The translations under genes were made by a program, and so were the position numbers. A stretch of DNA of 64,000 bases from the NCBI GenBank assembly GCA_018672055.1, contig JABHGM010000001.1, positions 353,404 through 417,403 on the forward strand. Direction: 5' to 3'. Under the pieces are notes generated by a model. It did not search any database, was not told the DNA's origin, and saw nothing but the letters and a program-made list of their open reading frames with translations. Of this stretch, positions 10,067-38,904 are shown piece after piece. Origin of the DNA: a bacterium. GTDB taxonomy: Bacteria > Patescibacteriota > Patescibacteriia > UBA1558 > UBA10009. Position 1 is the stretch's first letter, and each line of letters starts with the position of its first letter.

Positions 10067-10071
10067 ATTTA

Positions 10072-10156: not shown

Positions 10157-10170
10157 CTCATGTGATACAC

Positions 10171-10246: not shown

Positions 10247-10292
10247 TTGACAAAATTACTAATATACGATAGCTTATAAACATCATATTTGA

Positions 10293-10368
10293 CGCGGGGT
10301 AGAGCAGTTGGCAGCTCGGCAGGCCCATAACCTGCAGGTCGCCGGTTCGAGTCCGGCCCCCGCAACCA
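10293..10368 (+). tRNA. Initiator tRNA-fMet (CAT)
   Basis: Acceptor CGCGGGG/CCCCGCA gives a C1:A72 mismatch. A11:U24 is present. 3' end CCCCGCAACCA is identical to E. coli tRNA-fMet. Anticodon loop is CCCATAA. Confidence 0.85.
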
Positions 10369-10435
10369 AATTCCATTGAAAGATGGATTTTTTTGATTGA
10401 AAAATTAGTGAATTTACAGTATAATTAAGTAAATT

Positions 10436-11197: not shown

Positions 11198-11203
11198 AAT
11201 ATT

Positions 11204-12076: not shown

Positions 12077-13544
12077 TTTTATTTTTATTTAATAAACTAA
12101 TTATTTTTCTATCTTTTTCTTTATTTAAATAATATTTTATTTTATCTTTTGCTACGTTAGTTTTAACAAAGTCTAACCAATCTGGATTAGGCTTTTTTCT
12201 ATTCTTATTAATTAATATTTCAATAACATCTCCACTTTTTAGAGGAGTGTCTAATGAATTCATTTCATCATTTATTAAAGCACCACTACATTTATTACCC
12301 ACATCTGTATGAATATGATATGCAAAATCAACAGGCGTAGAATTTTCAGGTAAATCAATTACATCACCTCTTGGTGTAAAGACAAATATTCTGTTTTGAA
12401 ATACTTCAACTTTAATTTCTGATAAATATTTTGAATCATCTTGAAACTTTTTTTGAATATCTTTTAAACCATCTATCCAGATAGCTTTTTCTTTTGTTAA
12501 CTTTTTAATATCACTTTCTTTGTATTTCCAATGAGCAGCAATACCAAATTCAGCAAGATCATGCATTTTTTGCTCTCTTATTTGGAACTCAACTATTTTA
12601 CCCTTCTCAGCAAAAACAGTTGTGTGTAATGATTGATAACCGTTAGGTTTAGGTTGTGCAATATAATCTTTAACCCTGCCTTTTAATGGTTTCCATTTTT
12701 TATGTACCAGACCAAGTACTCTATAGCATTCAGGAATATCTTTGACTACAACTCTTATAGCTATTAGATCATATATTTTATCTATATCTTTATCACGTGT
12801 TAACATTTTACGATACAGAGAATATATATGTTTTACTCTGCCATGTATAGAGATATATTCAATACCTTCTGCTTGTAATTCTTTTTGCATTATTTTCTTT
12901 ATCTTTTCAATAAATTTAAATTCTACTTTTAATTTATTTTCAGCTTCTTTTTTAACCCAGGCATATTCTTTAGGATAAACATAAGGAAAAGCTAAATCTT
13001 CTAAATTTCCTTTCATTTCACCCATACCAAGTCTAAGAGCAATTGGTGCATATATTTCTAAAGTTTCTAAAGCAATCCTTTTTCTTTTATCTGGTCTTAA
13101 GTGTTCTAAAGTTTCTAAGTTATGCATTCTATCTGCAAATTTAATTAATATAACCCTAATATCTTCAGCCATAGCTAAAAACATTTTACGTAAGTTTTCA
13201 GCATATCTTTCTAAACCACGATATTTAAGAGTACCAAGCTTTGTAATCCCTTCAACAAGTTTAACAACTTCTTTACCAAATTTCTTTTTAATATCTTCTA
13301 GTGTATAGCTAGTATCTTCAGGTACATCATGAAGCAGACCAGCGATTATAGAAGGCGTATCTAATCTTAATTTAGCAAGATTTAATGAAGTAGCTAAAGA
13401 ATGTTGAATATAGTCTTCACCTGACTGACGTTTCATGCCAGCATGAGCCATAGCAGCAAATTCATAAGCTTCACGTATTTTTTTAACGTTAGCATCAGGA
13501 TTATATTCTTTAACAGCTTCAATTATTTGTTCGATAGTTATCAT
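12069..13544 (-). CDS. RelA/SpoT-family (p)ppGpp synthetase/hydrolase, short form (HD + synthetase + TGS only)
   Basis: 491 aa. HD motif (HDVPEDT), RelA_SpoT synthetase core (GRVKHIYSLYRKM, YQSLHTTV) and a TGS domain are present; the helical/ZFD/ACT C-terminal half is absent. Confidence 0.9.
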   Translation of the reverse strand: MITIEQIIEAVKEYNPDANVKKIREAYEFAAMAHAGMKRQSGEDYIQHSLATSLNLAKLRLDTPSIIAGLLHDVPEDTSYTLEDIKKKFGKEVVKLVEGITKLGTLKYRGLERYAENLRKMFLAMAEDIRVILIKFADRMHNLETLEHLRPDKRKRIALETLEIYAPIALRLGMGEMKGNLEDLAFPYVYPKEYAWVKKEAENKLKVEFKFIEKIKKIMQKELQAEGIEYISIHGRVKHIYSLYRKMLTRDKDIDKIYDLIAIRVVVKDIPECYRVLGLVHKKWKPLKGRVKDYIAQPKPNGYQSLHTTVFAEKGKIVEFQIREQKMHDLAEFGIAAHWKYKESDIKKLTKEKAIWIDGLKDIQKKFQDDSKYLSEIKVEVFQNRIFVFTPRGDVIDLPENSTPVDFAYHIHTDVGNKCSGALINDEMNSLDTPLKSGDVIEILINKNRKKPNPDWLDFVKTNVAKDKIKYYLNKEKDRKIISLLNKNKIK

Positions 13545-13674
13545 ATATTTTGTTTATTTATTGTACTAATACTAGATAAATAAGTAAAGAGATACTTGAC
13601 TTTTAGAGTAAAATATTATAATATGTTCTATTAAATAAGTATGCACACAAACAACTAAATATAAGGAGAAAATA

Positions 13675-14643
13675 ATGCGTTATTTAATAGTACTTACAGT
13701 AATGGTAGTTATACTCTTAAATGTAACTATAGCTCAAAGACCTAACGTAATAATTATAAATGACTTTAATTGTCGTAATAATGCAAAATCAGCAATTGAA
13801 TATATGGATTGCTATGAGCAGGCAAGTAGAGCTACTACTACCTATTTTTCATTAGATAATGATAATTATAGTGATTTTGACACATTCGTTTATAACTCAG
13901 CGATACATGAATTGAATAATTTATTGTGGCTTATAATAACCTATAGGATAGATAATGGTCAGAATGAACGAATATTGTCAAATTATTTAAAAAAGGAATT
14001 AGATAATTATTCAGATGATAGTGTTAATCGTGGTGAAATCTTAATAACAAACTCAGATGAGTTTGTTGCAAATAGCGATAAACATAGAAAACTTACCAAT
14101 ATTATCTATGATAAACTGGCTCAGCTGGTCAATGAGATAATTGAATTAAAACCAGCAAATATGTACGATCGTATATTTGTAAACGGTATTACTACTAGTT
14201 ATTCTGCTTATAAGTACGAAGGCATTCCTACTATGTCTGACTTGGATAATGTAAAAAGTAGATTACTTAAATCGGGGGCAATTCCTATAGAGAATGTTAA
14301 AAAGATGATTTATACAGCTAATTCAAAAAGTCTTTTATATAATGCAGAGGATGAATTTCTTAGTTATTATAAAGACTTTGATTGGTATGAAGAACGAATA
14401 AAAAAAGCTTCTTTAGAAGTCCTTGAATTAGATCCTAGTTTTGCAATCCCTTGTTATAAAGGATATATTGATTATGACTGGGGCAGAGAAATGATGAATG
14501 CTGCAATAGAAGAGAGACCTTTTAATGAAAAATATTTTTTTAGGAAGTATCTTATACTTGGAGCAATACTAATTAATGTGGCATTAATCTTTTATTTAAT
14601 GTATTTGGCAACACATAAGCCTAAGCAATCGATACAATCTTAA
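13675..14643 (+). CDS. Hypothetical protein with N-terminal signal/anchor and C-terminal TM helix
   Basis: 322 aa. Hydrophobic N-terminus (LIVLTVMVVILLNVTIA) and C-terminal TM (LILGAILINVALIFYLMYLA). No recognisable catalytic motifs. Confidence 0.5.
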   Translation: MRYLIVLTVMVVILLNVTIAQRPNVIIINDFNCRNNAKSAIEYMDCYEQASRATTTYFSLDNDNYSDFDTFVYNSAIHELNNLLWLIITYRIDNGQNERILSNYLKKELDNYSDDSVNRGEILITNSDEFVANSDKHRKLTNIIYDKLAQLVNEIIELKPANMYDRIFVNGITTSYSAYKYEGIPTMSDLDNVKSRLLKSGAIPIENVKKMIYTANSKSLLYNAEDEFLSYYKDFDWYEERIKKASLEVLELDPSFAIPCYKGYIDYDWGREMMNAAIEERPFNEKYFFRKYLILGAILINVALIFYLMYLATHKPKQSIQS

Positions 14644-14656
14644 TGTATTTAAATAA

Positions 14657-14688
14657 CCCTCTGATCAATGATCAGAGGGTATTTTTTT
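14657..14688. terminator. Bidirectional intrinsic terminator between convergent genes (CCCTCTGA-loop-TCAGAGGG, T7 on the + side, A-run on the other)
   Basis: Read directly. Confidence 0.7.
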
Positions 14689-14712
14689 ATTTAAATTTAT
14701 TTGTTTATATAT

Positions 14713-16896
14713 TTACTTACAATCTTTATTTGAGCACTTAGTAGTATCTTTAGGTCCAAATACCATTAAGGCTTCACACTTTGGACATTTATCACCGGTT
14801 GGTTTAGACCATAGAGCGTGTTTACAATCAGGATATTGGTTACAAGCAAAAAATGTTTTACCTTTTTTACTTCTTTTTTCTACTATATCACCTTTATTAC
14901 ACTCTGGGCATTTTACTCCAGTCTTTTTTTCAATATTTTTTATATTCTTACAATCTGGGTAACCAGTACAAGCTATGAATTTTCCGAATCTACCATGCTT
15001 TACTGCCATAGGTTTACCGCACTTATCACACTTTTCTTTGATTTCTTCAGGTTCTTCAATTTTTCCATCATCACCAATTTGTTTAGTATTTTTACATTCT
15101 GGATAATTAGAACAAGCTAAGAATTTACCAAATCTACCTAATTTAATAAGCATAGCTTTACCGCATTTATCACATTTTTCATCTGACTTTTCTTCAGTTA
15201 TATCTTTTTTATTTATTTCTTCTTCTTTTAACATAAGATTTTTTTTAAAAGGTTCATAAAAGTTTTTTATAATTGGTTGCCACTCTTTATTACCCTGAGC
15301 TATTTCATCTAAATCATCTTCCATAGAAGCGGTAAATTTATAATCTACTATATCTTTAAAATGTTTTACTAATAAATCATTTACTACAATACCAATTTGT
15401 GTTGGTTTTAATCTTTTTTCTATTCTATCAACATATTTTCTAGTTTGTATTGTAGCAATAGTTGGAGCATAAGTTGAAGGTCTGCCAATACCATGCTCTT
15501 CTAATACTTTAACCAATCCAGCTTCAGAGTATCTAGCAGGTGGTTCTGTAAAATGTTGAATACTTTTAATTTCTTTATCTTTTAAAATATCTTTTATTGA
15601 AAGTTTAGGTAATATGTCATCACCGCTTTTAGGAGGTATTACTTTTAAGAAACCATCGAATGTTATAACTGAGCCTTTAGCTCTAAAGATATATTGATTA
15701 TCACTTACTATATCTACATTTGTATTATTAACGAGAGCAGAAGCCATTTGAGAGGCTATAGCTCTTCTCCAGATTAAATTATATAACTTAAATTGTTTAT
15801 CATTTAAATGTTGCTTAATACTTTCTGGATCATAACTAGCATGTGTTGGACGTATAGCTTCATGAGCTTCTTGAGCTAGTTTTGATTTTGTTTTGTAAAT
15901 ACCTTTTTTAAAATATTCTTTACCATACTTATCAGTAATATATCCTTCAGCTTCATTTATGAACTTATCAGATAAAGTTAAAGAGTCAGTACGCATATAG
16001 GTAATTAAACCAACTTGACCTTCATTACCAAGATTAATACCTTCATAAAGCTGTTGAGCAAACATCATAGTTTGTTTAGCTGAGAAGCCAAGCATTCGGT
16101 TGGCTGTTTGTTGTAGGGTTGAAGTAGTAAAAGGAGGTAGTGGATTTCTTTTTGATTCTTTTTCATCTACTTTGCCAACTGTATATTTTTGTCCTTTTAA
16201 TTCATCTAATATTTTATCAGAACCTTTTTTATCTGAAATATCAAATTTAGTTAACTTCTTTTCAGGCGTACTATTTAATTTAGCATTAATATCATTATCA
16301 TCTTTAGTAAATAGTCCTTCAATAGTCCAATATTCTTCTGGTTTAAATGCTTCTATTTCTCTTTCACGTTCTACTATTAAACGAACACAGACAGATTGAA
16401 CACGTCCAGCTGATAATCCACGAGCTACTTTTTTCCAAAGGAAAGGAGATAATTCATAACCGACTAATCTATCTAATATTCTACGAGCTTGTTGAGCATT
16501 TACTAAGTTATTATCAATTTTACCAGGTTTTTCTAAAGCTTCTTTTATAGCTGATTTAGTAATTTCATGAAAAGTAATTCTTTTGGTATTTTTTGGATGT
16601 TTAAATATATTATCTAAGTGCCAAGCAATAGCTTCACCTTCTCTATCTTCATCAGTTGCGTAATATACTGTAGAGGCTTTACTGGCTAATTTTTTAAGCT
16701 CACTAGCTCTTTTTTTAGCCTTGTCTGGTACTACGTATTCAGGTTCAAAATCATGTTCAATATCAACACCCATAGTACTTTTAGGTAAATCACGTATATG
16801 TCCAAAGCTAGATTCTACTTTATAGTCATATGATAAAAAACGGCTAATTGTTTTAGCTTTTGTAGGGGATTCGACTATGACTAAATTCTTACTCAT
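14713..16896 (-). CDS. topA: DNA topoisomerase I
   Basis: 727 aa. TOPRIM N-terminus (LVIVESPTKAKTI), active-site region, and three C-terminal C4 zinc-ribbon repeats (CDKCGK..C..YP.CKN). Confidence 0.95.
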   Translation of the reverse strand: MSKNLVIVESPTKAKTISRFLSYDYKVESSFGHIRDLPKSTMGVDIEHDFEPEYVVPDKAKKRASELKKLASKASTVYYATDEDREGEAIAWHLDNIFKHPKNTKRITFHEITKSAIKEALEKPGKIDNNLVNAQQARRILDRLVGYELSPFLWKKVARGLSAGRVQSVCVRLIVEREREIEAFKPEEYWTIEGLFTKDDNDINAKLNSTPEKKLTKFDISDKKGSDKILDELKGQKYTVGKVDEKESKRNPLPPFTTSTLQQTANRMLGFSAKQTMMFAQQLYEGINLGNEGQVGLITYMRTDSLTLSDKFINEAEGYITDKYGKEYFKKGIYKTKSKLAQEAHEAIRPTHASYDPESIKQHLNDKQFKLYNLIWRRAIASQMASALVNNTNVDIVSDNQYIFRAKGSVITFDGFLKVIPPKSGDDILPKLSIKDILKDKEIKSIQHFTEPPARYSEAGLVKVLEEHGIGRPSTYAPTIATIQTRKYVDRIEKRLKPTQIGIVVNDLLVKHFKDIVDYKFTASMEDDLDEIAQGNKEWQPIIKNFYEPFKKNLMLKEEEINKKDITEEKSDEKCDKCGKAMLIKLGRFGKFLACSNYPECKNTKQIGDDGKIEEPEEIKEKCDKCGKPMAVKHGRFGKFIACTGYPDCKNIKNIEKKTGVKCPECNKGDIVEKRSKKGKTFFACNQYPDCKHALWSKPTGDKCPKCEALMVFGPKDTTKCSNKDCK

Positions 16897-26466: not shown

Positions 26467-26555
26467 TCGATATATAATAAAATATCCTCAAATAATATGG
26501 GGATTTTTTATTTGACTTATGATAATAATTATGTTATCACTATAGTTAGAATTAA

Positions 26556-26613: not shown

Positions 26614-26871
26614 GTGTTAGAAGTAAAAAGAAAAGATAATGAAAGTTTTGAATCACTTGTTAGAAGATTTTCTAAAAAGTTGATGCAAAGCGGCAGAGTT
26701 ATCCAAGCTAAAAAAATTAGATATCATACAAAACCATTAAATAAGAGAGCCCAGAAATTAAAGGCTCTAAGACGTGAAGAAATTAATGATAAGAGAGAAT
26801 ATTTACGTAAAATTGGTAAATTGGATGAATATTTAGAAAATAAAAAAAGAATTGTTGTTAAAAAAAGATAA
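26614..26871 (+). CDS. rpsU: 30S ribosomal protein S21 (GTG start)
   Basis: 85 aa. VKRKDNESFESLVRRFSKK..GRV...KKIRYHTKP is an S21 signature. AGGTAGGTGA ribosome-binding site upstream. Confidence 0.88.
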   Translation: MLEVKRKDNESFESLVRRFSKKLMQSGRVIQAKKIRYHTKPLNKRAQKLKALRREEINDKREYLRKIGKLDEYLENKKRIVVKKR

Positions 26872-26873
26872 CT

Positions 26874-27323
26874 ATGTTAGATATTGAAAAAAGAATAGAT
26901 GCTAATTTAATTAAAGCCTTAAAAGCTAAAGAAAGCGATATAGTAGATACCTTAAGATTAGTTAAAACAGCATTAAAGAATGAGCAAATTGCTAAGAAAG
27001 AAGAATTGAATGAGTCAGATATTTTAAAAGTATTGAAAAAGGAAGCAAAAAAGCGCAAAGAAGCTAGTATTGCATTTGAAAAAGGCAATAGGCCTCAATT
27101 AAAGGAAAAAGAAGATACTGAACTCAAAATTATTTTAGAATACTTACCCGAAGAAATATCAGATGAGGAATTGAACAAATTAGTAGATGAAGTATTAAGT
27201 AATCATCAAGAAGCTTCAATGCAAGATTTTGGCACTATTATGAAAGAAGTAATGGCTAAAACAGATAATCAAGTTGATGGATCCAGGGTAAGTGGATTAG
27301 TAAAAGGGAAATTAAGTTCATAA
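26874..27323 (+). CDS. GatB/YqeY-domain protein
   Basis: 149 aa. Resembles YqeY (AIKNEQIAK..LSDEEVLKVLKKEAKKRKEA..). Sits downstream of rpsU as in many bacteria. Confidence 0.8.
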   Translation: MLDIEKRIDANLIKALKAKESDIVDTLRLVKTALKNEQIAKKEELNESDILKVLKKEAKKRKEASIAFEKGNRPQLKEKEDTELKIILEYLPEEISDEELNKLVDEVLSNHQEASMQDFGTIMKEVMAKTDNQVDGSRVSGLVKGKLSS

Positions 27324-27341: not shown

Positions 27342-28934
27342 ATGCTTTTAAGTCAAAAAACAAAAATTACAAAAACAGCTACAATAGCCTTAGTTTTAGT
27401 CTTTGCGGTAGCTGTTTTTATGTTACTTACAACCATTGCTTTCGCTCAAGATGATTTTGGTTTAGAACCGGTTGTAGAATCAGGTTTAGGTACTACGGAC
27501 ATTAGATTAGTTATTATTAATATTATAAGGGTAGCTTTAGGTTTCTTAGGGATTTTAGCTGTTATCATAATATTATATGGTGGCTATGTTTGGATGACAT
27601 CTGCTGGTAATGATGAAAATGTTAACAAAGCTAAAAGAATATTGGTTAATGGCGTAATTGGTTTAGTAATAATATTATCATCTTACGCTATTGTAACTTT
27701 TGTTTTTAATAAGATGGAAGATGTTATATTTGGAGATGGTTCAGAACAAGGTAGTGGTTATCAGAATTCTGATATTTCTGCAGGAGCTTTGGGTGGCGGG
27801 GTTATAGAAAGCGTTTATCCTTTACCTGGTGCTAATAATGTACCACGTAATACTTTAATAATGGTTTCATTTAAAGAAGAAATACTTTTAGATAGTATTA
27901 TAACTGGTACTCATGCTAATTGTCCTGAGAATATATCATGTGGTATTTTAGCCGGTGATTCCGAAGATCCAAATGTTAAGATACTAAATTTAAATGACAA
28001 CTCCATAATGTCGGCTAGTGATGTCATGGTTTATACTACTGATTTAAAAAATTATATCTTTGATCCATATGGTAGTACAGGTTCACATTTAGGTAACCCT
28101 AATGGCTATACTGATTATCAAGTTAATCTCTCAACTAATATATATTTTAATAATGATTTAAATACTCCAGTCTTTTCTTTAGATGGCTATACTTGGAATT
28201 TTGAAATAAGTAATATTATAGATTTAACACCACCGACAATTATTTCACGTATACCTCAAGGTGAGGTTAACAGGAATGTAGTTATTCAAATAGTATTTAG
28301 TGAAGCTATTAATGCTGCTGCTGCTGTTAATTTAAATAGCGTTGATGTTTTATATGAAAATGTAGCAGGTGAAGAAATATTAATAGAAGGAAGTAGAGTA
28401 ATAAGTAATGGTTTTACAACTCTAACTATTGTTTCTGATATAGCGTGTGAAGGACCTTCAGAGTTTAATTCATGTGGTGATCCAGTCTATTGTTTTCCAG
28501 GTGATGAAGATATTTCTGTAACAGTTAAAGCTGTGACTGATCCTTTATTTCCTTTAGCTGGTATTTCTGATACAGCTGGTAATTCTTTAGCTTTAGACAA
28601 TTCTTGGCTTTTTAATACAAATAATGAATTAGATTTAGATCCTCCTGAATTAGAATCTATTGATCCAGTAGATAATGCTGAACTGGTACCACGTAATAAG
28701 GTGATAGAGGCAGTATTTAATGAAGATCTATTAGCTAGCAGTGTAAATAGTACTAATGTTTTAATATATAATGGTTCATTAAATGATACTCCATATACTG
28801 TTAATTTAAATAATCATGATTTGATTAGAATTAACGCTACTATGGTAGGTAATGCTACATATAGTACACGTTTAACTTCAGGCATTAAAGATATTTATCA
28901 AAATTGTTTTATTCCTCCTTTAACTAATCCATAA
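27342..28934 (+). CDS. Surface protein: VirB2/TrbC-like (T4SS-pilin-like) N-terminal two-helix domain fused to three SbsA/Big_5-like Ig domains
   Basis: 530 aa. Signal peptide (cleavage near AFA|QDD), then GLEPV..GLG and two hydrophobic helices (IIRVALGFLGILAVIIILYGGYVWMTSAG / ILVNGVIGLVIILSSYAIVTFVF). Three Ig-like modules begin PLPGANNVPRNTLIMVSF, IPQGEVNRNVVIQIVFSE, IDPVDNAELVPRNKVIEAVFNE. Stop overlaps the next start (ATAATG). Confidence 0.75.
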   Translation: MLLSQKTKITKTATIALVLVFAVAVFMLLTTIAFAQDDFGLEPVVESGLGTTDIRLVIINIIRVALGFLGILAVIIILYGGYVWMTSAGNDENVNKAKRILVNGVIGLVIILSSYAIVTFVFNKMEDVIFGDGSEQGSGYQNSDISAGALGGGVIESVYPLPGANNVPRNTLIMVSFKEEILLDSIITGTHANCPENISCGILAGDSEDPNVKILNLNDNSIMSASDVMVYTTDLKNYIFDPYGSTGSHLGNPNGYTDYQVNLSTNIYFNNDLNTPVFSLDGYTWNFEISNIIDLTPPTIISRIPQGEVNRNVVIQIVFSEAINAAAAVNLNSVDVLYENVAGEEILIEGSRVISNGFTTLTIVSDIACEGPSEFNSCGDPVYCFPGDEDISVTVKAVTDPLFPLAGISDTAGNSLALDNSWLFNTNNELDLDPPELESIDPVDNAELVPRNKVIEAVFNEDLLASSVNSTNVLIYNGSLNDTPYTVNLNNHDLIRINATMVGNATYSTRLTSGIKDIYQNCFIPPLTNP

Positions 28935-31900
28935 TGAGATTTATTAAAAACAATTTATTCATTTTAATATTACTTGTTGTAGTTAGTTTTTTTCTAATAC
29001 CTAATCTTTCATTTGCTCAAACTGATTTAGGTTTAGAACCGGTTGCAGAAACAGGTTTAGGTTCTAGTAGTTTACCAGAGCTAATTGTTAGAATAATTCA
29101 AATAGCTTTAGGCTTTCTTGGTATCTTAGCCTTAATAGTTATACTTTATGGAGGCTATACATGGTTATCATCTGGTGGTAATCAAGATAAGGTGGCTGAT
29201 GCTAAAAAAATACTTGTTAACGGTGTAATTGGTTTAGTAATAATATTATCTGCATTTAGTATTGTTACTTTTTTAATTACTAGAATATTTGATGCTACAG
29301 GTGGTGAAGCTTTGTATTGCGAAATAGGTCAAGTTGAAGAATGTTCTATGTCAGGTGATTGTGAAAGAGAGAAAACTTGTATTGATAATGGTGAAGGTAA
29401 TGGTGTCTGGGGAGATTGCGAAATAATTTACTCAGGTGAATGTAGTCCACTTAGTGATAGTGAATTTTTTAGACTAACAGCAACTGCTCCAGCTAATGGG
29501 GATGAACTAAATATTGCTAATGTTGTGGTTCAATTAACTTTTAATAATAATGTAGGTGATTTTAATGCCATAGATTTATCAGAAGGAGAAGGTGTAACTA
29601 TAGTTCAACGTTCAACTAATAATTTAGTACCTTTAGTAGGCGAAGTTTCAAATAATCCAAAAAAATTAAATATATATCCTGATAAAGATCAAGCTGGTTA
29701 TGCTTGTACTGGACATCCAGATCTTGCTTGTTTTCCATATGATTCAATTGATGATTTAAATAATTGGTATACAGTTACTGTTTTAACTGAGGGCGTTGTT
29801 TTAACTAATTCTTCTGGAACTGAAGTTTCTTGTTTAGATATACCTTGCGTATTTGAATTTAAAACAGGGTTTTCTGTAGATACAGAAAACCCTGTTGTAG
29901 ATTTAATTTCAGCTGTAAGTAATGGTCAGTTTGATTGGAATAATTCAGATAATATAGATATAAATATTTCTGAAAGCTTTTTATTTAATAGTCAGGCTTC
30001 TGATGACGCTGGTTTAGCTAGTTCTAATTTTTTTGAAAATCAAATTACTTTATCATCTACTCCTGATCTTGGACAAGGCTTGTTCTTATCACTTATTCCG
30101 TGGTCTCCTGAAGATTTAGGTTACCAAGTATCAGATGTAAAGCAGGTTGGGGCTGAAGTAACTGATTATGCTGGTAATTCAACTCAATCGATTAAACAAG
30201 TAACTCTTTTTTCAGCCACTTGTTATAACGAGATACAAGATGGAGATGAAATAGGTATAGATTGTGGTGGCTCATGTCCAGCGTGTAGTGATGAAAATGT
30301 AGATAATCCAATAATAACTTCTATTGATCCACCTAATGGTGCTTCAGGAAATTGGATAACCATTTATGGTTCAGGTTTTGGTGAGAGTCAAGGTACTATT
30401 AAATACAGGGATCAACTAGGAAATATTAATTATATTGGTGTACCTTCTTTAGGTATGTTGGTATGCGAAAGTCCATGGAATGATACTTGGATAATTATGG
30501 AAATACCAGATATTGATCTTGGTTTGGTTGATTTACAGGTGGTTAGGTTTAATTCTAGTATTAGTAGTAATTGGTATGAAGATTTTGATGTAAATACTAT
30601 TCAAAGACCTGGTATTTGTTTAATGACTTCAGATGATGGATATTATAATGATGAATTAAATATTATTGGTCATAGTTTTGGTGATAACACTGATGTACGT
30701 GATATATTTTTTGGACAATCAGTGGAAAGGGTATCAGCTTCAAATCAAAGCTTCAGTATTGAGGGAAGCATAGAACATGCTTATGGTAATGTACCTTATT
30801 TAGAAAGTGGCCAGACAGTAGTTAGGGTTGAAATAGATGGTGAAGAAAGTAATGGACTATATTTTACAGTAATAGATTCTAACCAAGAAAGTTCAATAAG
30901 TTTTTCACCAGATTCAGGTAATGTAGGTGAATACATTACTATTTATGGTTCAGGTTTTGGTGATTTCAAAGGTGAAGGAACTGTATATTTTAATAATAAT
31001 ATTGAAGGTAGTTTTGATTTTCCAGATGCTTGTGGCACTAACTATTGGTCTGACGATCAAATCGTGGTTAAAGTACCTGTCGGATCAAGTGATGGAGCAT
31101 TAAGAGTAGAAACAGATAGTGGTTACGTTGTTACTTCATCAACATTTTTTGATTTTAATAATACATTAGATATTTCTCCTGGAATTTGTAGTATTACTCC
31201 TAATTCAGGTTTAATAGATACGCCTGTATATATTGCTGGTGAGTTTTCTGAAGATGTTTTAGTTAATTTTTCTGGGATTGAACTATCTGATGTTGATATT
31301 GATAATAATGAAATAACCATCTTAGTTCCGAATGTTTCTTCAGGCTTAGTAAATTTAGAAGAACCAACTGGCGCTGAAAGTAATAGTGTTAATTTTTCAG
31401 TTGGTCAGACTTCTCAAGGCGGAGAACCTAATGATGATTATTTTGAATGGCAGTTTACAACTTGTGAAGATTGTTTAATTCCTGAAGTTGAGGAAAATGG
31501 TATATGTTCAAATGGTGATTTAGCTTCACCAAGCCCAAGACCATATAGTACTGATGGTTTTATTGATCAAGATGTTACCATAACTTTTAATAGTACTATG
31601 GACCATAGTACATTTATTGCTAATGATTCTGTTATTTTAGAAGTATGTGATGGTTTAGAAGTTAATTGTACTTCTAGTAATTGGTCATTTGTATTAGGTG
31701 ATAATAGAAATTCTGTAGTATTAAATCCAGATAATGATTTTAATGCTGATACTTGGTATAGGATAACTTTAACTGAAGATATTGCTAATTTTGAATATAA
31801 TATGGATGCAGAATATTCTTGGTCATTTAAAACAGCTCAAGAAAATTTACAATGTACTGCTGACTCAGTTATTATTTCTCCTTATGATAGAAGAGAAGGA

Positions 31901-34900
31901 TCAACGCTTGGACCAATTGAATTAAATGAATATGTTAACTATTCAGCATCAGGTGTAAATAGTAATAATTGTGCTTCATGTTCAGATGATTTTGAATGGG
32001 AATGGGAATCGAATGATCCAGGTGCTGTTATATCTGATACTAATTTATCAACTAATCAACTACATGCTGAAGGTTTAATTTCTTCTAATCAAGAAATAAT
32101 AATAGCTCAGATAATAGACGTTGAACCTTATCCAATAGGTAATGCATATTTAAATATTGTAGAAGAAACAGGTAATCAAGATAATGAGCCAGGTGATGAT
32201 CAATTACTGCTTGTTGATTATCAACCGGTTGGTGATCAGGTTTGCTTAAATACCTTAGCTCAAGTTGAATTTAATCATGGATTATCGGATAATGGCTTAT
32301 CTCAGTTTAGTTTTTTTAAGTGCTCAACTAGCGAAGGAGACTGTCCAACTTTAGGGGAGGGAGGTAATTGGATATCTGCAGGTTCAGACATTACTTTTAA
32401 TAACAATAATACTCTAGTTAGTATGTCTCCTAGTAGTGGTTTACTTGATCCAGATTTTGATTATAGGATAATTATGTATAGTGGTGATCCTGATATTCTT
32501 GGTGAGAGTCGCATTAGTACAGATGATGGCTTATTCTTAAATCAAGAAGGCTGTGAATATGGAGGCGGTAATTGGTTTCAGGGTATGCAATGGTGCTATT
32601 GGATATTTAGCACAGTAGATGAAAGGTGTGAAGTTGATAGCATAGGAATTTCTCCAAATAATGTTATTAATAATATTAATGATACACAGGATTGGCAGGC
32701 TACAGCTTATGATCAAGAAGGCTTAGCATTAACTGATGTTGTTGACTCATGGACTGTTAATGATAGTGAAATAGCTAGTATTGTAGATAATGGTGATAAT
32801 ACTGCTACTACTGATAGTCTATCATCTGGCAGTACTTGGCTTTATACTGATATAGATATAGATAATATTCGAGGGGAAGCCTGGTTAGAAGTGGAGCCAA
32901 GTATTGTTAATCCTCAAATAATTAGTACTCAACCTATAGGTCAAGAATATTTTTGTACAAACTCATTGGTAGAAGTTACTTTTGATCAGTATTTAAAGAG
33001 AGAGACTGTAAATCAAAATACATTTGAATTAAATCAATTTTCAGATACAGATTTAGGTGGCTGTATTGCTTTTGATGAAACTATAGCTTTTGGTGAGCCA
33101 ACTAATTTAATAAATAAATTTACGGATGTATATTTTAATAAGTTTATATCTAATTTAACTAGTAAGTTAGTAAATTATGTATTTAACAAGGTGTATGCTA
33201 TTGTTCCTGACTGGATTCCTCAATCTGGATATTGGTGTCCCTTAAATAATTCAGGTGAATGGATTTTAGATAATATTGGTGGTGAAGGTAGGGTTAAATT
33301 TCAGCTAAACGAGGTTTTGCCAGGAAATAGTAGTATTCAAGTTTTAATTCAAGGCGGTCAAGGTGGAGTCTTAAGTATTCAAGACTTACCTTTAGATATA
33401 AATAGTGATACTTATGATTATTATTTTAATACTAGTGATACTTATTGTGAATTGAGCTTTTTACAAGTTTCTACTGATTTAGAAACTTATTCGCCAGAGT
33501 ATACTTTTAATATTAGTGAAGATTCTAGCAATCTAGATGAAAATGATCCATTGAGTGGTAATTTTGATACTATTAATGATTATGATAAAGCTTTCTATGT
33601 AACTGGTTTTAGTCAAAATGGTCAAGCTTTGACTTCAGTGCCTGGTGAGTATGAATGGATATGGCGTTGGAATAGTGAAGACACTTCTATTGCTTTAACT
33701 ACAGATTCTGTTAATTACAGTGAGTATTATGATGCAGATTATGATGGTAACTATAATGTAGTACTAGCCGCTAACAATAATGGTGAAACAGATATTACTG
33801 CTCATGCAGTATTTATAGATAACAGTTCCTTGGCAGGTACTGGGCAGGTTATCGTTGATTTATGCGAAAATCCATGGCCAGCTGTAGATATAACTAATTT
33901 AGATAATACATATTATGAAGATACTAATTTTTCATTTGGTTTAAGTTATTGTCGTGATGCTGGTTTATATGGCTTTAATGATGATCTACCTTCACTTGGT
34001 GATATTTCTGATAATGTAACCCTTTATAATATTAGTGCTGATGATTTATTAAAAGAGTATTTAATGCCAGTAGGAGATGATCTTATTGGTTTAAGAGTAT
34101 ATACTAATGATAATCATTTAAGTCCAGCTGAGTGGTATTCAAATAATATACCTGAGTTACAGCAGGGTAATTTATCCTATCTAATAGTAGATGGCTATCA
34201 AGCAATTCAAGATGGTAGAACTATTTACGTAGCAGCTACTAGTGTAACTAATGATAATATATCAATTTATTCAGATATTTTCCTTCTATCATATAACTCT
34301 GAGGCTTCAGCTGAAACAGTTAATATATATAATCAATTAATTGATAGATGGATTTTTAATACAAATATTTTAGAAGAGAATAAGGGTAAGTTAATTAGAG
34401 ATTTAAAAAGGTTAAATGATTTAACCTATATTAAAGAAGTATTAAATAATTATAATGCTATAAATAATACATATCCTATATTATCAGGTGGTACTTTCTT
34501 AACAGGTATGAGTACTTCTAAATGGCCTTCCTGGAATAATACTTTTTCTTCAGAACTTAATGCTTCATTACCTATTGATCCTATTAATCAATTTAATGCA
34601 TGCGCAGATTGCACTTCATCTTCAGATGCTAGTTGTGATAACTATGATATAAATACTTGTTGGAACCCTGATTTAAATAACGGGCAAGGTAATTTTTCTT
34701 GTGACGCTGGTTCTTATTTCTATAGATATCAATATTCATATAATGCAGGACCTGATTATTTATTAGCTGCTAAAATGGAATTTCCATATGTAGGTAATAT
34801 AGCTTCTACTTGGAATCCTTCTTTCGATACTAATCATTTATATTTAAGTACAGAATTTGTAGAAGGTTGTGGTTTTGAATTTTTAGGACAAGTTTGTGGT

Positions 34901-36727
34901 AATGGTTCTATTGAAGGCAGTGAAGAATGTGAGTTAGGTGATTCTATAAATTACTGTGGCTATGATCACGCATATTACGAGTCACAACTAGTTGGTTGTT
35001 CTGATATTGATTGTACTTGGGCTGAAGATGATTCTGGTGTTTGCGGAGGTTATTGTGGTGATGGTAATGTTGATAGTTTTGAAGATTGTGACGGAGGCAT
35101 TAATTGTAGTGACACTTGTGATTTTATACCATATTGTGGTGATAATATTGCTCAAACTTATTTAGATGAAGAATGTGATGGTTCTGATTTAGGTAATTTT
35201 AGTTGTAGTGATAATTCAACACCTAGTTGTAATACGTCTTGTGAAATAAGTTGTCCTTCTGGTGAATTATATGGTGGATCATGTGGTAATAATATAAAAG
35301 AAGGCACAGAAGAGTGTGATGGTCTTGATACGCCTCCTAATACCTCATGTAACACATCCTGTGAGGTAACAAGCTGTACTGGTAGTTATTTAGCTTGTGA
35401 TGGTAATTTAACTGATTTAGATGGTTGTGAAGTAGATATATTATCTGATGAATATAATTGTACTGCTTGTGGTAATAGCTGTTATGATGTTTCTGATATT
35501 AATGAGAATACTTTAGTTGAGTGTACTCAATATATTAATGATGATGGAGATGATTCAGCTGTTTGTTCATATGGTTGTAATCCATATGATACTTGGTTAA
35601 ACTGTGATTATTCTCCAGCGGGTTGTGAATCAAATTATTTAACGGATTCTAGTAATTGTAATGTTTGTGGAAATGACTGTAGTATTGATCCTGGCACTAT
35701 AATTCAAGCTGATCTTGATAATAATATTGATTATTTTTCAGGTTCACCATATCCAGCAGCTGATACTACAATTTATACCTGTGAAAATGGCGGTTGTGGT
35801 TTTATTTGTGAGGAAGGTAGTTATGCAAATTGTGATGAAGTTTCTGATTGTGAAACTATTTTATATAATGATAGTGAAATTACTTGCGGAGAATGTGGTA
35901 ACGGAGTAATTGAAGGTAATGAGCAATGTGAATTAGGTGATTATAGTGCAGAGTTAGTATTTGTTTTTGATATTTCTACAAGTATGGATGATGATGCAGC
36001 TGGTCTATGTTCAGCTTTAGATAGCTTATCTCAAGAATTAGATGAAGATGAAATTAACTATATGTTAACTGTAATGACTTTAAATGGTGGTGTTGGCACA
36101 ACAACTGTTGGCACAACAGATGCTTATGATGCTTTAGTGACTGATTGTGATATATATGGACATGATAATATTCAACACTTTAATTTTTATGATAATTCAT
36201 CAAATAATATTTCAGTTGACGTCGAACAAACTTGTGGGGTAATAACTGGTGCTAAGGAACATTGGGGATATGCTACAAATATTATTGCTCAGTCATATAA
36301 TTGGAATACAGATTATTCAATAACACAAAAGATAATTGTACCAGTTAGTAATGAAGGTCCTTGGTGTGGTGGCGGTAATACTAGTAATGATAGTACTATT
36401 GATAGTGAGGATATTAGTATTGTTTCTACTGCTATTACTACAGCCCTGAATAATTCTGTATTAGTTAGTCCTGTTATAATTCAATTTATTCCACTTGATT
36501 ATGATGAGGATGATGATGATTATGAAACATATTATTATGATGATAATGAAGAACCAGCTCAATCTTACGCTAGTCTTTCCTGGGGTGCTTTATCTGGTTT
36601 AAGTGATAATTTTGTACAGACTGGTGGAATATATACTAATTCATCAGATAATTGGTCTAGTACAATAAATACTATAATTACGGGTAGTACTTGTACTGAT
36701 GAATGTATTTTTCCAGTGATTGAATAA
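28934..36727 (+). CDS. Giant 2597-aa surface protein: same T4SS-pilin-like N-terminal domain, IPT/TIG and Big-like domains, five Myxococcus-type Cys-rich repeats, C-terminal vWA domain
   Basis: N-terminal 115 aa nearly identical in pattern to the upstream protein (GLEPVAETGLG..IIQIALGFLGILALIVILYGGYTWLSSGGNQDKVADAKKILVNGVIGLVIILSAFSIVTF). IPT/TIG-like ITSIDPPNGASGNWITIYGSGFG, ISFSPDSGNVGEYITIYGSGFG, ICSITPNSGLIDTPVYIAGEF. Five CGNG.IEG.EECELGD-type repeats. vWA MIDAS VFVFDISTSM. Confidence 0.8.
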   Translation: MRFIKNNLFILILLVVVSFFLIPNLSFAQTDLGLEPVAETGLGSSSLPELIVRIIQIALGFLGILALIVILYGGYTWLSSGGNQDKVADAKKILVNGVIGLVIILSAFSIVTFLITRIFDATGGEALYCEIGQVEECSMSGDCEREKTCIDNGEGNGVWGDCEIIYSGECSPLSDSEFFRLTATAPANGDELNIANVVVQLTFNNNVGDFNAIDLSEGEGVTIVQRSTNNLVPLVGEVSNNPKKLNIYPDKDQAGYACTGHPDLACFPYDSIDDLNNWYTVTVLTEGVVLTNSSGTEVSCLDIPCVFEFKTGFSVDTENPVVDLISAVSNGQFDWNNSDNIDINISESFLFNSQASDDAGLASSNFFENQITLSSTPDLGQGLFLSLIPWSPEDLGYQVSDVKQVGAEVTDYAGNSTQSIKQVTLFSATCYNEIQDGDEIGIDCGGSCPACSDENVDNPIITSIDPPNGASGNWITIYGSGFGESQGTIKYRDQLGNINYIGVPSLGMLVCESPWNDTWIIMEIPDIDLGLVDLQVVRFNSSISSNWYEDFDVNTIQRPGICLMTSDDGYYNDELNIIGHSFGDNTDVRDIFFGQSVERVSASNQSFSIEGSIEHAYGNVPYLESGQTVVRVEIDGEESNGLYFTVIDSNQESSISFSPDSGNVGEYITIYGSGFGDFKGEGTVYFNNNIEGSFDFPDACGTNYWSDDQIVVKVPVGSSDGALRVETDSGYVVTSSTFFDFNNTLDISPGICSITPNSGLIDTPVYIAGEFSEDVLVNFSGIELSDVDIDNNEITILVPNVSSGLVNLEEPTGAESNSVNFSVGQTSQGGEPNDDYFEWQFTTCEDCLIPEVEENGICSNGDLASPSPRPYSTDGFIDQDVTITFNSTMDHSTFIANDSVILEVCDGLEVNCTSSNWSFVLGDNRNSVVLNPDNDFNADTWYRITLTEDIANFEYNMDAEYSWSFKTAQENLQCTADSVIISPYDRREGSTLGPIELNEYVNYSASGVNSNNCASCSDDFEWEWESNDPGAVISDTNLSTNQLHAEGLISSNQEIIIAQIIDVEPYPIGNAYLNIVEETGNQDNEPGDDQLLLVDYQPVGDQVCLNTLAQVEFNHGLSDNGLSQFSFFKCSTSEGDCPTLGEGGNWISAGSDITFNNNNTLVSMSPSSGLLDPDFDYRIIMYSGDPDILGESRISTDDGLFLNQEGCEYGGGNWFQGMQWCYWIFSTVDERCEVDSIGISPNNVINNINDTQDWQATAYDQEGLALTDVVDSWTVNDSEIASIVDNGDNTATTDSLSSGSTWLYTDIDIDNIRGEAWLEVEPSIVNPQIISTQPIGQEYFCTNSLVEVTFDQYLKRETVNQNTFELNQFSDTDLGGCIAFDETIAFGEPTNLINKFTDVYFNKFISNLTSKLVNYVFNKVYAIVPDWIPQSGYWCPLNNSGEWILDNIGGEGRVKFQLNEVLPGNSSIQVLIQGGQGGVLSIQDLPLDINSDTYDYYFNTSDTYCELSFLQVSTDLETYSPEYTFNISEDSSNLDENDPLSGNFDTINDYDKAFYVTGFSQNGQALTSVPGEYEWIWRWNSEDTSIALTTDSVNYSEYYDADYDGNYNVVLAANNNGETDITAHAVFIDNSSLAGTGQVIVDLCENPWPAVDITNLDNTYYEDTNFSFGLSYCRDAGLYGFNDDLPSLGDISDNVTLYNISADDLLKEYLMPVGDDLIGLRVYTNDNHLSPAEWYSNNIPELQQGNLSYLIVDGYQAIQDGRTIYVAATSVTNDNISIYSDIFLLSYNSEASAETVNIYNQLIDRWIFNTNILEENKGKLIRDLKRLNDLTYIKEVLNNYNAINNTYPILSGGTFLTGMSTSKWPSWNNTFSSELNASLPIDPINQFNACADCTSSSDASCDNYDINTCWNPDLNNGQGNFSCDAGSYFYRYQYSYNAGPDYLLAAKMEFPYVGNIASTWNPSFDTNHLYLSTEFVEGCGFEFLGQVCGNGSIEGSEECELGDSINYCGYDHAYYESQLVGCSDIDCTWAEDDSGVCGGYCGDGNVDSFEDCDGGINCSDTCDFIPYCGDNIAQTYLDEECDGSDLGNFSCSDNSTPSCNTSCEISCPSGELYGGSCGNNIKEGTEECDGLDTPPNTSCNTSCEVTSCTGSYLACDGNLTDLDGCEVDILSDEYNCTACGNSCYDVSDINENTLVECTQYINDDGDDSAVCSYGCNPYDTWLNCDYSPAGCESNYLTDSSNCNVCGNDCSIDPGTIIQADLDNNIDYFSGSPYPAADTTIYTCENGGCGFICEEGSYANCDEVSDCETILYNDSEITCGECGNGVIEGNEQCELGDYSAELVFVFDISTSMDDDAAGLCSALDSLSQELDEDEINYMLTVMTLNGGVGTTTVGTTDAYDALVTDCDIYGHDNIQHFNFYDNSSNNISVDVEQTCGVITGAKEHWGYATNIIAQSYNWNTDYSITQKIIVPVSNEGPWCGGGNTSNDSTIDSEDISIVSTAITTALNNSVLVSPVIIQFIPLDYDEDDDDYETYYYDDNEEPAQSYASLSWGALSGLSDNFVQTGGIYTNSSDNWSSTINTIITGSTCTDECIFPVIE

Positions 36728-36816: not shown

Positions 36817-37560
36817 ATGTTTGATGATCAACAACAAAATCAAGTAGGTGAGCAACCTATACCAAAACAAGAACCAGAGCCTACAGTTATGCCTGATTTA
36901 AATGAGGCACCTAGCAATATACCAGTCCCTAATGAACCTGAAGACATATTTAAAGACTCTGAGGCTACTTCAGTCCCTAGTACTCCACCAGAACCTCAGG
37001 CTGCTCCAGAACCATCTGGTCCACCTGAGCCACTCAAAGAATTACCTGATGATTTAGATGGTGATGAAAAAGATAAGAAGTTTTTTATTATGGGTTTAGT
37101 AATTGTCTTTATTATCGTTTTTATAGGTGGCTATTATGCTTATACAAAACTTTTTAAAGATGATGTTATGGATGTACCATTGGTAGATTTTACTCAAGAG
37201 GATTCAATTAATGATTCTAATGATATTATAATTGATGAAGAATCAGATAATGTGCCAACCAGCGAAGAATTAGAACAAGAAATTAGTGATCTTGAAGATC
37301 AAATTACACCAAGTGAAGATACTACAGATTCAGATAATGATGGTTTAACTGATGTTGAAGAATTAGCAATTGGTACTGATCCTTTTGAAGTAGATAGTGA
37401 TGGTGACGGACTATTTGATAGAGAAGAAGTTAAAGTTTATCACACTAATCCTTTAAACCCTGATACAGATGGTGATGGGTGGTTAGATGGTACGGATGAA
37501 GTACATAAAGGCTGGGATCCATTAGGTCCTGGAAGACTCTTAGATATAAATAATCAATAA
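36817..37560 (+). CDS. Membrane-anchored protein with Pro-rich N-terminus and thrombospondin-type-3-like Ca-binding repeats
   Basis: 247 aa. Single TM (FFIMGLVIVFIIVFIGGYYAY), then DSDNDGLTDVEE..DSDGDGLFDREE..DTDGDGWLDGTDE. Confidence 0.7.
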   Translation: MFDDQQQNQVGEQPIPKQEPEPTVMPDLNEAPSNIPVPNEPEDIFKDSEATSVPSTPPEPQAAPEPSGPPEPLKELPDDLDGDEKDKKFFIMGLVIVFIIVFIGGYYAYTKLFKDDVMDVPLVDFTQEDSINDSNDIIIDEESDNVPTSEELEQEISDLEDQITPSEDTTDSDNDGLTDVEELAIGTDPFEVDSDGDGLFDREEVKVYHTNPLNPDTDGDGWLDGTDEVHKGWDPLGPGRLLDINNQ

Positions 37561-37566
37561 TAATAA

Positions 37567-38904
37567 ATGTTTACACCTCCAGACAAACAACCTGAAATTG
37601 TTTTAGATGATAGAGAAGCTAAGGTATTAACAGAAGAACCTGTTGAGCCAGCTGTTGAAGAAGAATTGCCAGAAATTCAAAGCAATGATATCCATACAAT
37701 GCCAGATAAGTTTTTAAAATCAACAGATGCTCCTAAAACAAAAGGTAGAATAAGTTGGGTAGTTTTAGCTTCGGTTATTTTTATTGTAGTAGGTGGTGTT
37801 ATTGTAACTCTATTCCTTTATTTTACACGGGAAGATGAAGTTTTAACTATTCCTGATGATATTAGTAATTTAAATATTAATATAGATTTACCAACCTCAA
37901 CACCTAGTGATTTAGACGATGTTAATGATGATACTGATTTAACTGAGCCTGAATCACGTGATAGTAAGAGATTAAATGATATTTATGACTTAAAATCAGC
38001 TTTAGCTATGTACTTTGCTAAATATGATGAGTATCCAGTTAATTTAAATACTTTACTTAGAGACTATTTAACATTAATACCAGAAAATCCAACTCCAGGT
38101 GGTGATAGTTATGATTATAAAGTAAATCAAGATCAAATTGATTTTGAATTAACTTTTTCTTTAGAATCAGGTGGTCCATTTGGTAACTTAACTTTAGACG
38201 CAAGTAAGTATGTTTTAACACCACAAGGTATTAGATTATATATTGATCCTGATTCACTATTACCAGATGATGAAGTAATAGCAGATACTACTCAAATACA
38301 AATGGGTTTAGATTCAGATGAAGATGGTGTATCTGATATTGAGGAAAATATGTATCAAACTAATTCAACTTTAAAAGATTCAGATGAAGATGGTTATGAT
38401 GATGCTATTGAGATTTTAGCGCTATTTGATCCGGCCATCGGTGATGGTGCTAAGTTACTTGATTCAAGTTCAGTTGCTATTTATCAAAATCCTAGCTATT
38501 TCTATTCTTTAATTTATCCTGCCTCTTGGACAACTACACCTTTAACTGTTGATAATAAGGAAGTAGTATTTATTTCAAGTACTGGAGAATTTTTTGAAGT
38601 AATTATTCAAGATAATCCACTTGGTATGTCAGCATATAGTTGGTATTTAGCAAATAATCCAGGTGTTGATCCAAATACTTTAACTACGTTATTAATTGAT
38701 GGTTTGCCTGCAGTTAAATCACCTGATGGTTTAAGAACATATCTTGGTATTGGTTCAAGTATATATATGCTAAATTATAATGTTGGTGCTAGTATGCAGA
38801 CTAATTTTTATACTTCATATAGATTATTTAGTGAAAAATTAATTTTTATTGATCCTAGTACTATTGAAGTAGGTGATACAGGCACTACAACAACTCAAGA
38901 ATAA
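37567..38904 (+). CDS. Membrane-anchored hypothetical protein with TSP3-like repeats
   Basis: 445 aa. TM (WVVLASVIFIVVGGVIVTLFLYF), then DSDEDGVSDIEE..DSDEDGYDDAIE. Confidence 0.65.
   Translation: MFTPPDKQPEIVLDDREAKVLTEEPVEPAVEEELPEIQSNDIHTMPDKFLKSTDAPKTKGRISWVVLASVIFIVVGGVIVTLFLYFTREDEVLTIPDDISNLNINIDLPTSTPSDLDDVNDDTDLTEPESRDSKRLNDIYDLKSALAMYFAKYDEYPVNLNTLLRDYLTLIPENPTPGGDSYDYKVNQDQIDFELTFSLESGGPFGNLTLDASKYVLTPQGIRLYIDPDSLLPDDEVIADTTQIQMGLDSDEDGVSDIEENMYQTNSTLKDSDEDGYDDAIEILALFDPAIGDGAKLLDSSSVAIYQNPSYFYSLIYPASWTTTPLTVDNKEVVFISSTGEFFEVIIQDNPLGMSAYSWYLANNPGVDPNTLTTLLIDGLPAVKSPDGLRTYLGIGSSIYMLNYNVGASMQTNFYTSYRLFSEKLIFIDPSTIEVGDTGTTTTQE

Follow-up and report, generated by a model that had tools for sequence, protein, structure and literature searches.

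A conserved Patescibacteria gene pair encoding putative modular VirB2-type pilins with large ectodomains

This work concerns two adjacent genes, designated A and B, in a stretch of 64,000 nucleotides from the chromosome of a member of the Patescibacteria (GenBank assembly GCA_018672055.1, contig JABHGM010000001.1, positions 353,404 to 417,403 of the forward strand; hereafter the window, in whose own numbering positions are given). We favour, with slightly better than even confidence, an interpretation of A and B as modular VirB2-type pilins that form a conserved chromosomal cassette in Patescibacteria of the Parcubacteria/ABY1/Paceibacteria type; it includes a stepwise mechanism of display, adhesion and compatibility with other pilins. 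The finding is more general than a preliminary description of the locus had supposed, since the cassette is conserved and widespread. It is also less exotic than was claimed there, since neither the pilin family nor its tandem arrangement is new and databases already contain the fusion of pilin module and ectodomain.

Gene A (27342..28934) encodes a protein of 530 amino acids (aa) consisting of a signal peptide, a helical hairpin module and a Big_5 ectodomain, and gene B (28934..36727) encodes a protein of 2597 aa in which a module of the same type precedes a giant ectodomain with three TIG and two Big_5 domains. Both open reading frames (ORFs), with all their parts given below, lie on the + strand and are exactly as first described; together they occupy 9386 nt, or 14.7% of the window, in agreement with the earlier estimate of about 9.4 kb and 15%. 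The same two products are found in public gene calls from independent assemblies (contigs of 417 kb and 947 kb), and the A protein recurs without change in 136 blocks of the collection used, which indicates that the pair is not an assembly artefact.

The N-termini of the two proteins had been called almost the same. BLASTP aligned residues 17–132 of A with residues 10–125 of B, ungapped, at 53% identity and 78% similarity (E 1e-36), a resemblance far beyond chance that this wording nevertheless overstated. Outside the N-terminal module no significant A–B alignment was obtained with BLASTP. At the DNA level the modules are 66% identical, and in a six-frame hidden Markov model (HMM) search no ORF of the window apart from A and B had the module.

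A hydropathy scan detected three hydrophobic segments in each protein, corresponding to a signal peptide and two transmembrane (TM) helices, TM1 and TM2, as had been proposed. In A, the signal peptide would comprise aa 1–35 (27342..27446), with cleavage predicted between AFA and QDD from hydropathy and the −3/−1 rule, at an 'AQ' site that is conserved in our module alignment A1. The hairpin module of A follows at aa 36–125 (27447..27716), where PF18895 matches aa 58–121 and the TM helices lie at 53–89 and 99–125; the TrbC match covers aa 9–120. In B, the putative signal peptide comprises aa 1–28 (28934..29017), with predicted cleavage between SFA and QTD, and the module aa 29–121 (29018..29296), with the PF18895 match at aa 44–114. 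An AlphaFold2 (AF2) model of the module, built on a 17-sequence alignment, consists of helices at residues 3–31, 47–79 and 84–121, the first coinciding with the signal peptide of B and the other two forming a hairpin predicted with confidence (predicted local distance difference test scores of 84–94). The loop between TM1 and TM2 is short and contains K/R residues (SAGNDENVNKAKR in A, SGGNQDKVADAKK in B), and no TM segment was detected in B beyond residue 125. Hydropathy and the positive-inside rule thus fit the topology of VirB2, in which the N-terminus would be outside, the loop inside and the C-terminus, here with the large region, extracellular.

A and B are members of the PF18895 (T4SS_pilin) family, named after the type IV secretion system (T4SS). 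Full-length A and B score 32.4 and 35.7 bits against a gathering threshold of 26.6, and residues 1–130 alone score 37.2 bits (E 3e-9) and 41.3 bits (E 1.6e-10), respectively; public precomputed annotations assign the same family. The HMM check proposed for PF18895 therefore gave a clear answer, whereas that proposed for TrbC (PF04956, gathering threshold 27.9) was borderline: the isolated N-terminus of A lies just above the threshold (28.0 bits) and that of B just below (27.7 bits), and the full-length proteins fall under it (24.0 and 21.3 bits). NCBIfam NF045849, the pilin-like conjugal transfer protein of mycoplasma integrative and conjugative elements (ICEs), matches aa 51–123 with 29.2 and 26.1 bits, below its 40-bit cut-off, and A and B are not members of this family. 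Alignment by hhalign of the module profile A1 with VirB2 of Agrobacterium tumefaciens C58 (plasmid pTiC58) gave a probability of 59.7% and an E value of 8.9e-5 over 78 columns at 27% identity, with the landmarks in register: the signal-peptide AQ site, TM1, the W-M turn and the TM2 motif (GVIGLVII/GVVGGIVI). A tblastn search of 72,556 plasmids with the module returned nothing. Taken together, the sequence comparisons make A and B probable distant homologues of VirB2/TrbC.

The strongest generalization comes from related genomes. A module-alignment scan of one genome per GTDB species yielded 80 loci, all apparently from metagenome-assembled genomes (MAGs) of Patescibacteria, and an HMM search identified 330 module-bearing ORFs in them. 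These loci are of two types. The first consists of arrays of about 2–12 short pilins (about 115–290 aa). In the second, found in 35 of the 80 loci, a medium-sized protein (521–999 aa) is followed by a giant one, both with the module at the N-terminus; a lone giant is present in 4 further loci. Complete B-type giants measure 1619–3120 aa, and those that run past the end of the locus exceed 3460 aa. By BLAST, the match to A covers 300–690 residues in the first genes, and that to B as many as about 1490 in the second. The surroundings are conserved as well, in the order lepB-hisS-rpsU-(yqeY or relA)-A-B, where relA is divergent and occurs in the Paceibacteria-type loci. Parcubacteria GW2011_GWF2_45_11, the nearest relative in GTDB, has a B homologue that consists of two overlapping ORFs (L001:5019-10193 and 10175-15406) that jointly match B of the window; this could be due either to a frameshift or sequencing error or to a real split. 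About half of the related MAG records (L002–L080) are titled 'uncultured Gammaproteobacteria bacterium', while their gene content and synteny are clearly those of Patescibacteria; this looks like a labelling problem in those third-party annotation (TPA) assemblies.

The fusion is not a rarity, contrary to what had been supposed. At least 205 full-length orthologues of A were found in a set of 5.8 billion proteins, nearly all of them combining PF18895 with Big_5 and named in their sources 'hypothetical protein', 'Ig-like domain-containing protein' or 'pilin'. An exhaustive HMMER search with the PF18895-type module recovered 70,018 clusters, 22,591 of them at E≤1e-10, and among the best 150 family representatives 34 carry a single N-terminal module on a protein of 530–5289 aa. 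The module–ectodomain fusion is thus common in public databases, unstudied rather than unseen, and the earlier statement that it is functionally uncharacterized, together with the tandem arrangement, holds insofar as no study was found in the accessible literature. The same 150 representatives include another architecture, in which 2–17 hairpin modules are joined by short linkers in one polypeptide with a single signal peptide (P0016, 552 aa with 6 modules, P0018, P0042, 1775 aa with 17 modules, and about 60 others). These multi-module chains look like real poly-pilin proteins rather than read-through artefacts, and we found no description of such PF18895 chains in the accessible literature.

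How the two modules relate to each other bears on the origin of the pair. Within a genome, the A and B modules share on average 63% identity (range 45–74%; 61% in the window), to be compared with 50% for A–A and 53% for B–B pairs from different genomes; in 92% of cross-genome comparisons the A module of a genome is more similar to the B module of the same genome than to the A module of the other. The two modules of the window also have in common a run of 26 identical nucleotides (GTAATTGGTTTAGTAATAATATTATC) in the TM2 region. Both observations speak for a recent local duplication, or a gene-calling or assembly artefact, with signal-anchor N-termini that are similar by coincidence. However, throughout the 35 loci the first genes correspond to A in their ectodomains and the second genes to B, so that A and B constitute distinct orthologue groups. 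The nearest neighbour of a module among those of other loci is mostly of its own type (A 28/36, B 33/36), from which it follows that the A/B duplication predates these lineages. Identical ORFs in many independent assemblies speak against an artefact, and HMM scores above the Pfam gathering threshold against coincidence. With the pair and its synteny conserved, this scenario, which had been named beforehand as the one that would undo the pilin interpretation, can be regarded as refuted, and we give it hardly any credence.

The similarity of A and B within genomes indicates instead concerted evolution by gene conversion or a shared genome-specific constraint, and the 26-nt identical run is compatible with either. 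Bias in amino-acid composition alone does not explain it, since short pilins of one array average only 38% identity (44% for adjacent pairs). The modules of the window are about 50% identical to the pilins in position 1 of the arrays and 37–41% identical to those in positions 2–6. In three cases a pair and a short array occur in the same MAG (L005+L024, L039+L054 and L066+L036). Between the B module and the lead short pilin of one MAG the identity is 58–65%. This likeness appears to be a property of the subfamily and not of the individual genome: a specific affinity of the B module to the lead pilin of its own genome was considered and rejected, as the own-genome lead ranks only 5–6 of 25. The proteins of the pair have the architecture of modular pilins: Big_5, TIG and other domains are grafted C-terminally onto a module whose type is that of the organism's own lead short pilin. 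The arrays of six short pilins (L024, L036, L007, L032) are flanked by genes for SMC, a solute-binding protein, a helix–turn–helix protein, a methyltransferase, a GT2 glycosyltransferase, PPDK, Lgt and an MFS transporter, and an isolated seventh pilin gene lies in a conserved position about 4–5 kb upstream of them.

The ectodomains are acidic, and that of B is rich in cysteine. In A it extends over aa 126–530 (27717..28931), has a net charge of −40 and contains the immunoglobulin (Ig)-like domain Big_5 (68.8 bits over three stretches in Pfam; E 2.3e-19 on the isolated slice). The ectodomain of B has a net charge of −347, and the protein contains 92 cysteines. Its N-terminal part includes a TIG/IPT region with three TIG domains (aa ~459–738; 30308..31147), which according to BLAST coverage is conserved in 31–35 loci, followed by a Big_5 domain at aa 867–967 (31532..31834; E 3.6e-11). 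A second conserved stretch, aa ~1300–1950, is covered by 23–29 loci. Towards the C-terminus, cysteine-rich repeats of the CGNG..EECD type (aa ~1979–2332; 34868..35929) hold 44 of the 92 cysteines and have no Pfam match at E≤0.05. Like the last 265 residues (aa 2333–2597; 35930..36724), they are lineage-specific: the repeats are covered by few or no related loci and the C-terminal region is not conserved across them. The C-terminal region contains the motif VFDISTSMD, read directly from the sequence and of the DxSxS form; a von Willebrand A domain was considered there and rejected, because the DISTS motif alone is insufficient and there is neither a Pfam match at E≤0.05 nor a sequence match in the PDB. 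Searches of PDB sequences by phmmer with B segments 1700–1960, 1961–2319 and 2320–2597 returned nothing.

Within the second conserved stretch, a block at aa 1700–1960 (34031..34813) combines a PsbP/LpqN-like sandwich with a putative type-IV-pilin-like head (aa ~1814–1960) devoid of its hydrophobic helix. A word-based homologue search with this block returned nothing, and its homologues were drawn from the giant family representatives, where it also occurs deep inside 15 others. In Paceibacteria-type loci, aa 1716–1954 of B correspond to the N-terminal region of a separate third gene (e.g. L025:15825-18998, L040:15872-18814 and L047:16418-19642), whose product bears an ordinary Sec signal peptide but lacks the pilin module. 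In the window, B thus unites components that have genes of their own in other lineages, which suggests that these components work together. The block is a candidate link of the Rosetta-stone type between a VirB2-like-anchored protein and a type-IV-pilin-like domain.

The favoured interpretation can be put as a sequence of steps. A and B would be exported by Sec and their signal peptides removed by signal peptidase I. The PF18895 hairpin would insert into the cytoplasmic membrane in the VirB2 topology, with the lysine-rich loop inside, and would thereby place outside the cell an acidic, Cys-rich, multi-domain ectodomain made up of Big_5, TIG, the PsbP-like and type-IV-pilin-like elements and the Cys-rich repeats. 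The types of these domains point to adhesins or contact proteins directed towards a host or partner cell. The module and the lead pilin of the arrays are members of one conserved subfamily, and the likeliest reason for this kinship would be compatibility with the lead pilin or its assembly machinery. Given such compatibility, A and B could be built into a VirB2-like filament, or could nucleate or cap it, in parallel to modular type IV pilins such as PilB of Streptococcus sanguinis. Strict pilin motifs, affinity to the lead pilin and the matched modules of A and B suggest that the module has kept pilin-type interactions, with which it could enter a VirB2-like filament or nucleate one.

The main rival account holds that the PF18895 hairpin is a general two-helix membrane anchor, in which case A and B would at no point be part of a filament and would lack any tie to a T4SS. 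We consider this account less probable than the modular-pilin interpretation. No VirB4, VirB6, VirD4 or other T4SS component such as VirB3 is encoded in the window or in the 10 kb that flank it on each side (about 84 kb in all), nor are there further pilin modules within 10 kb beyond either window end. The cassette lies amid housekeeping genes, in an apparent operon with rpsU and yqeY, and the family is enormous, with very diverse ectodomains on proteins that reach 5289 aa, as expected of a generic anchor. The hairpin fold itself is non-specific. On the other hand, motifs that are near-invariant and common to free-standing pilins (LGFLGI, GG..WM..GGN, AK and NGVIGLVIILS) would not be expected of a mere anchor. 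Nor would an anchor account readily for a module whose closest kin among the array pilins is specifically the lead one, for A and B modules that are alike within genomes, or for the probable homology with VirB2/TrbC.

Several further observations weigh against the modular-pilin interpretation. The short arrays of the related MAGs likewise have no T4SS genes, including virB4 and virB6, within 10 kb; consequently the connexion with a T4SS is drawn from the family name and from other lineages. In a helical pilus, not every subunit could carry a C-terminal load of some 2500 residues. The within-genome likeness of A and B could in part stem from gene conversion or composition and not from functional constraint, and the adhesin-type role attributed to the ectodomains derives from domain types only. 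To our knowledge, no pilus of PF18895 proteins has been visualized so far. Structural comparison brought no help: Foldseek found no PDB match at E≤0.001 to the hairpin model and returned generic hairpins, all at E>1, headed by the ATP-synthase c subunit, with the conjugative pilin of A. pernix (8dfu) in 49th place (E 6.2). The expected hairpin was thus predicted by AF2, whereas its comparison with known structures was non-discriminating; because so simple a fold cannot discriminate, we take the fold search as uninformative and not as negative. The module profile gave only chance matches to PDB sequences, with no solved VirB2 or TraA among them.

A bolder version of the modular-pilin interpretation can also be formulated, which we put forward as doubtful. 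According to it, the specificity of a VirB2-like filament would come from giant pilin-fused adhesins. A and B, together with a type-IV-pilin-like component C that is fused into B in the window, would serve as its conserved minor or tip subunits, by which the filament is nucleated or capped and the host cell bound. They would represent the 'missing adhesin' of the essential T4SS-like apparatus, and their matched modules would reflect co-assembly.

The modules might alternatively be carriers, the ectodomain being cleaved from the hairpin after export so that a secreted protein is released and a mature pilin left behind. Pilins of the VirB2/TrbC type are matured proteolytically and cyclised; TrbC of RP4, which loses C-terminal residues to the signal-peptidase-like TraF, offers a precedent. 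A signal peptidase I gene (Peptidase_S26, PF10502; 24498..25136, + strand), recognized in public gene calls, lies four genes upstream of the pair and is present in 33 related loci, and pTiC58 likewise has an annotated 'conjugative transfer signal peptidase TraF'. However, the S26 gene is most simply explained as the housekeeping lepB of a conserved housekeeping cluster, no conserved cleavage motif was identified after TM2, and the sequence immediately following the module is poorly conserved. We therefore judge the carrier scenario to be improbable, and a functional tie between the signal peptidase I gene and the pair is speculative.

Directly 5′ of A lie rpsU (ribosomal protein S21) and yqeY (26614..27323, + strand), identified from Pfam labels on public gene calls and from conserved synteny. 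The intergenic gaps along rpsU-yqeY-A-B are 2, 18 and −1 nt, and a terminator-like hairpin stands 5′ of rpsU (26484–26504). These features suggest a single transcription unit, and the four genes probably form one operon. A promoter scan gave 81 matches against 79.8 expected, i.e. chance level, and provides no promoter evidence.

The last A of the TAA stop codon of gene A is the A of the ATG of gene B (CCATAATGAG), as direct reading of the sequence TAATG at 28932..28936 (+ strand) confirms; the stop–start overlap noted before is thus real and amounts to one base. It fits translational coupling of A and B, which is plausible in this genome. Only 3 of the 36 genes of the window are preceded by a Shine–Dalgarno (SD)-like motif, the upstream regions being A/T-rich instead, and the organism appears to start translation largely without SD sites. 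For this reason the lack of an SD motif before B is uninformative with regard to coupling. In relatives the gap between A and B ranges from 2 to 232 nt, with a median near 29: the tight linkage of the two genes is conserved, the overlap itself is not.

Downstream of B, two membrane proteins are encoded at 36817..38904 (+ strand), one of 247 aa and one of 445 aa without a family match. The 247-aa protein carries bacterial TSP3 (calcium-binding) repeats (PF18884 TSP3_bac, E 1.7e-14), and the 445-aa protein has, after its TM helix, a motif 'RLNDIYDLKSAL..Y..YP' that resembles the start of type IV pilin heads. On the 3′ side of the cassette, 9 loci have a homologue of the 247-aa gene (10 ORFs) and 2 have one of the 445-aa gene; whether the two proteins belong to the A/B system is uncertain.

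The remainder of the window, with a GC content of about 30%, is ordinary chromosome, with genes for GroEL, ParAB, RelA/SpoT, TopA, DprA, Der, LytR, HisRS, S21 and YqeY on the 5′ side of the pair and for YbeY, FtsA, FtsZ, a release factor, CysRS, ComEC and EF-G on the 3′ side. Four tRNA genes (Met, Leu, Lys and Met; 9992–10368) directly precede parA and parB (10436–12076), and this region may lie near the replication origin. T4SS genes near dnaA have been reported in Paceibacteria (PMC12102498); none was seen here. A 1017-aa protein (3896–6949), with no Pfam family and only a weak CglD/TSP3-like match, and a 392-aa CARDB-domain protein (7088–8266) are probably further surface proteins; their genes adjoin a divergent sigma-70/DUF5667 pair at 1938–3684.

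A large part of bacterial diversity belongs to the Patescibacteria, whose cultivated members, without exception, live attached to other cells. Their means of recognizing and holding hosts are largely unsolved, and no adhesin has been assigned to their T4SS-like system, which is essential, along with VirB2-like pilins, in the one genetically tractable species. A cassette in which Ig-domain ectodomains are covalently joined to a pilin module provides a concrete and testable candidate for the contact apparatus, and highly variable ectodomains on a constant module could set the host range. That A and B matter to the cell is suggested by their share of about 1% of a genome that is apparently under 1 Mb. 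The notion of the modular pilin, developed for type IV pili, would thereby come to include the VirB2 pilin superfamily, which is unrelated to them.

Previous work has shown that VirB2-like pilins are widespread in Patescibacteria and occur in arrays of 2–11 pilin genes (Quinonero-Coronel et al. 2025, PMC12102498); the same survey of 3,035 genomes found no PrgB-type adhesin. In Southlakia the pilins are essential and are encoded inside the T4SS cluster (Wang et al. 2023, PMC10633639), and a 2025 review considers the systems of Patescibacteria unique among monoderms in their potential for conjugative pili (PMC12857230). Kuroda et al. reported PF18895 proteins among the most highly expressed extracellular proteins of unknown function in Paceibacterales growing on methanogens and called them adhesion-related; PF18895 genes of 1230 and 1458 nt are among those tabulated in that work (PMC10936435). 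A full-text literature search retrieved no description of the giant-ectodomain fusion or of the A–B cassette; most subscription journals lie outside such a search, so this absence is no proof.

Comparison with known systems places A and B between several of them. With the PF18895 pilins and arrays of Patescibacteria they share the family, with scores above gathering, the signal peptide and hairpin, the tandem arrangement, the chromosomal location and the wide distribution. Those pilins are small and free-standing (about 120–190 aa here), form arrays of 2–11 and are often near virB4, whereas A and B have ectodomains of 405 and 2477 residues and stand in a housekeeping locus with no T4SS gene within about 84 kb. 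The accessible text of the papers on these pilins (PMC10633639, PMC12102498) does not mention fusions to giant ectodomains. VirB2, TrbC and TraA of diderm T4SS (PF04956) have in common with A and B a signal peptide, two hydrophobic helices, a short basic loop and the N-out/C-out topology, in A and B a predicted one. Sequence identity is very low, however, and the host of A and B is a monoderm; moreover, the giant extension makes head-to-tail cyclisation of the VirB2/TrbC type impossible unless it is cleaved off. The Mbov_0395 family of mycoplasma ICEs (NF045849) resembles A and B in being a small hairpin pilin-like protein of wall-less or monoderm bacteria, and differs in that A and B score below its 40-bit cut-off. 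PrgB, the LPXTG adhesin of Gram-positive conjugation, is comparable as a large surface adhesin proposed for cell–cell contact in a monoderm T4SS; it is anchored to the wall by sortase and has no pilin module, and A and B have no detected similarity to it. Among modular type IV pilins, PilB of S. sanguinis (a pilin with a von Willebrand A module; PMC8179133) belongs to an unrelated pilin superfamily and assembly machine, a type IV filament as opposed to a VirB2-like one of a T4SS. The payloads of A and B are 10–20 times larger, and incorporation into the filament has been demonstrated for PilB, whereas for A and B we only propose it. The logic is nevertheless the same: in a monoderm, and encoded alongside ordinary pilins, an N-terminal pilin module bears adhesive modules at its C-terminus.

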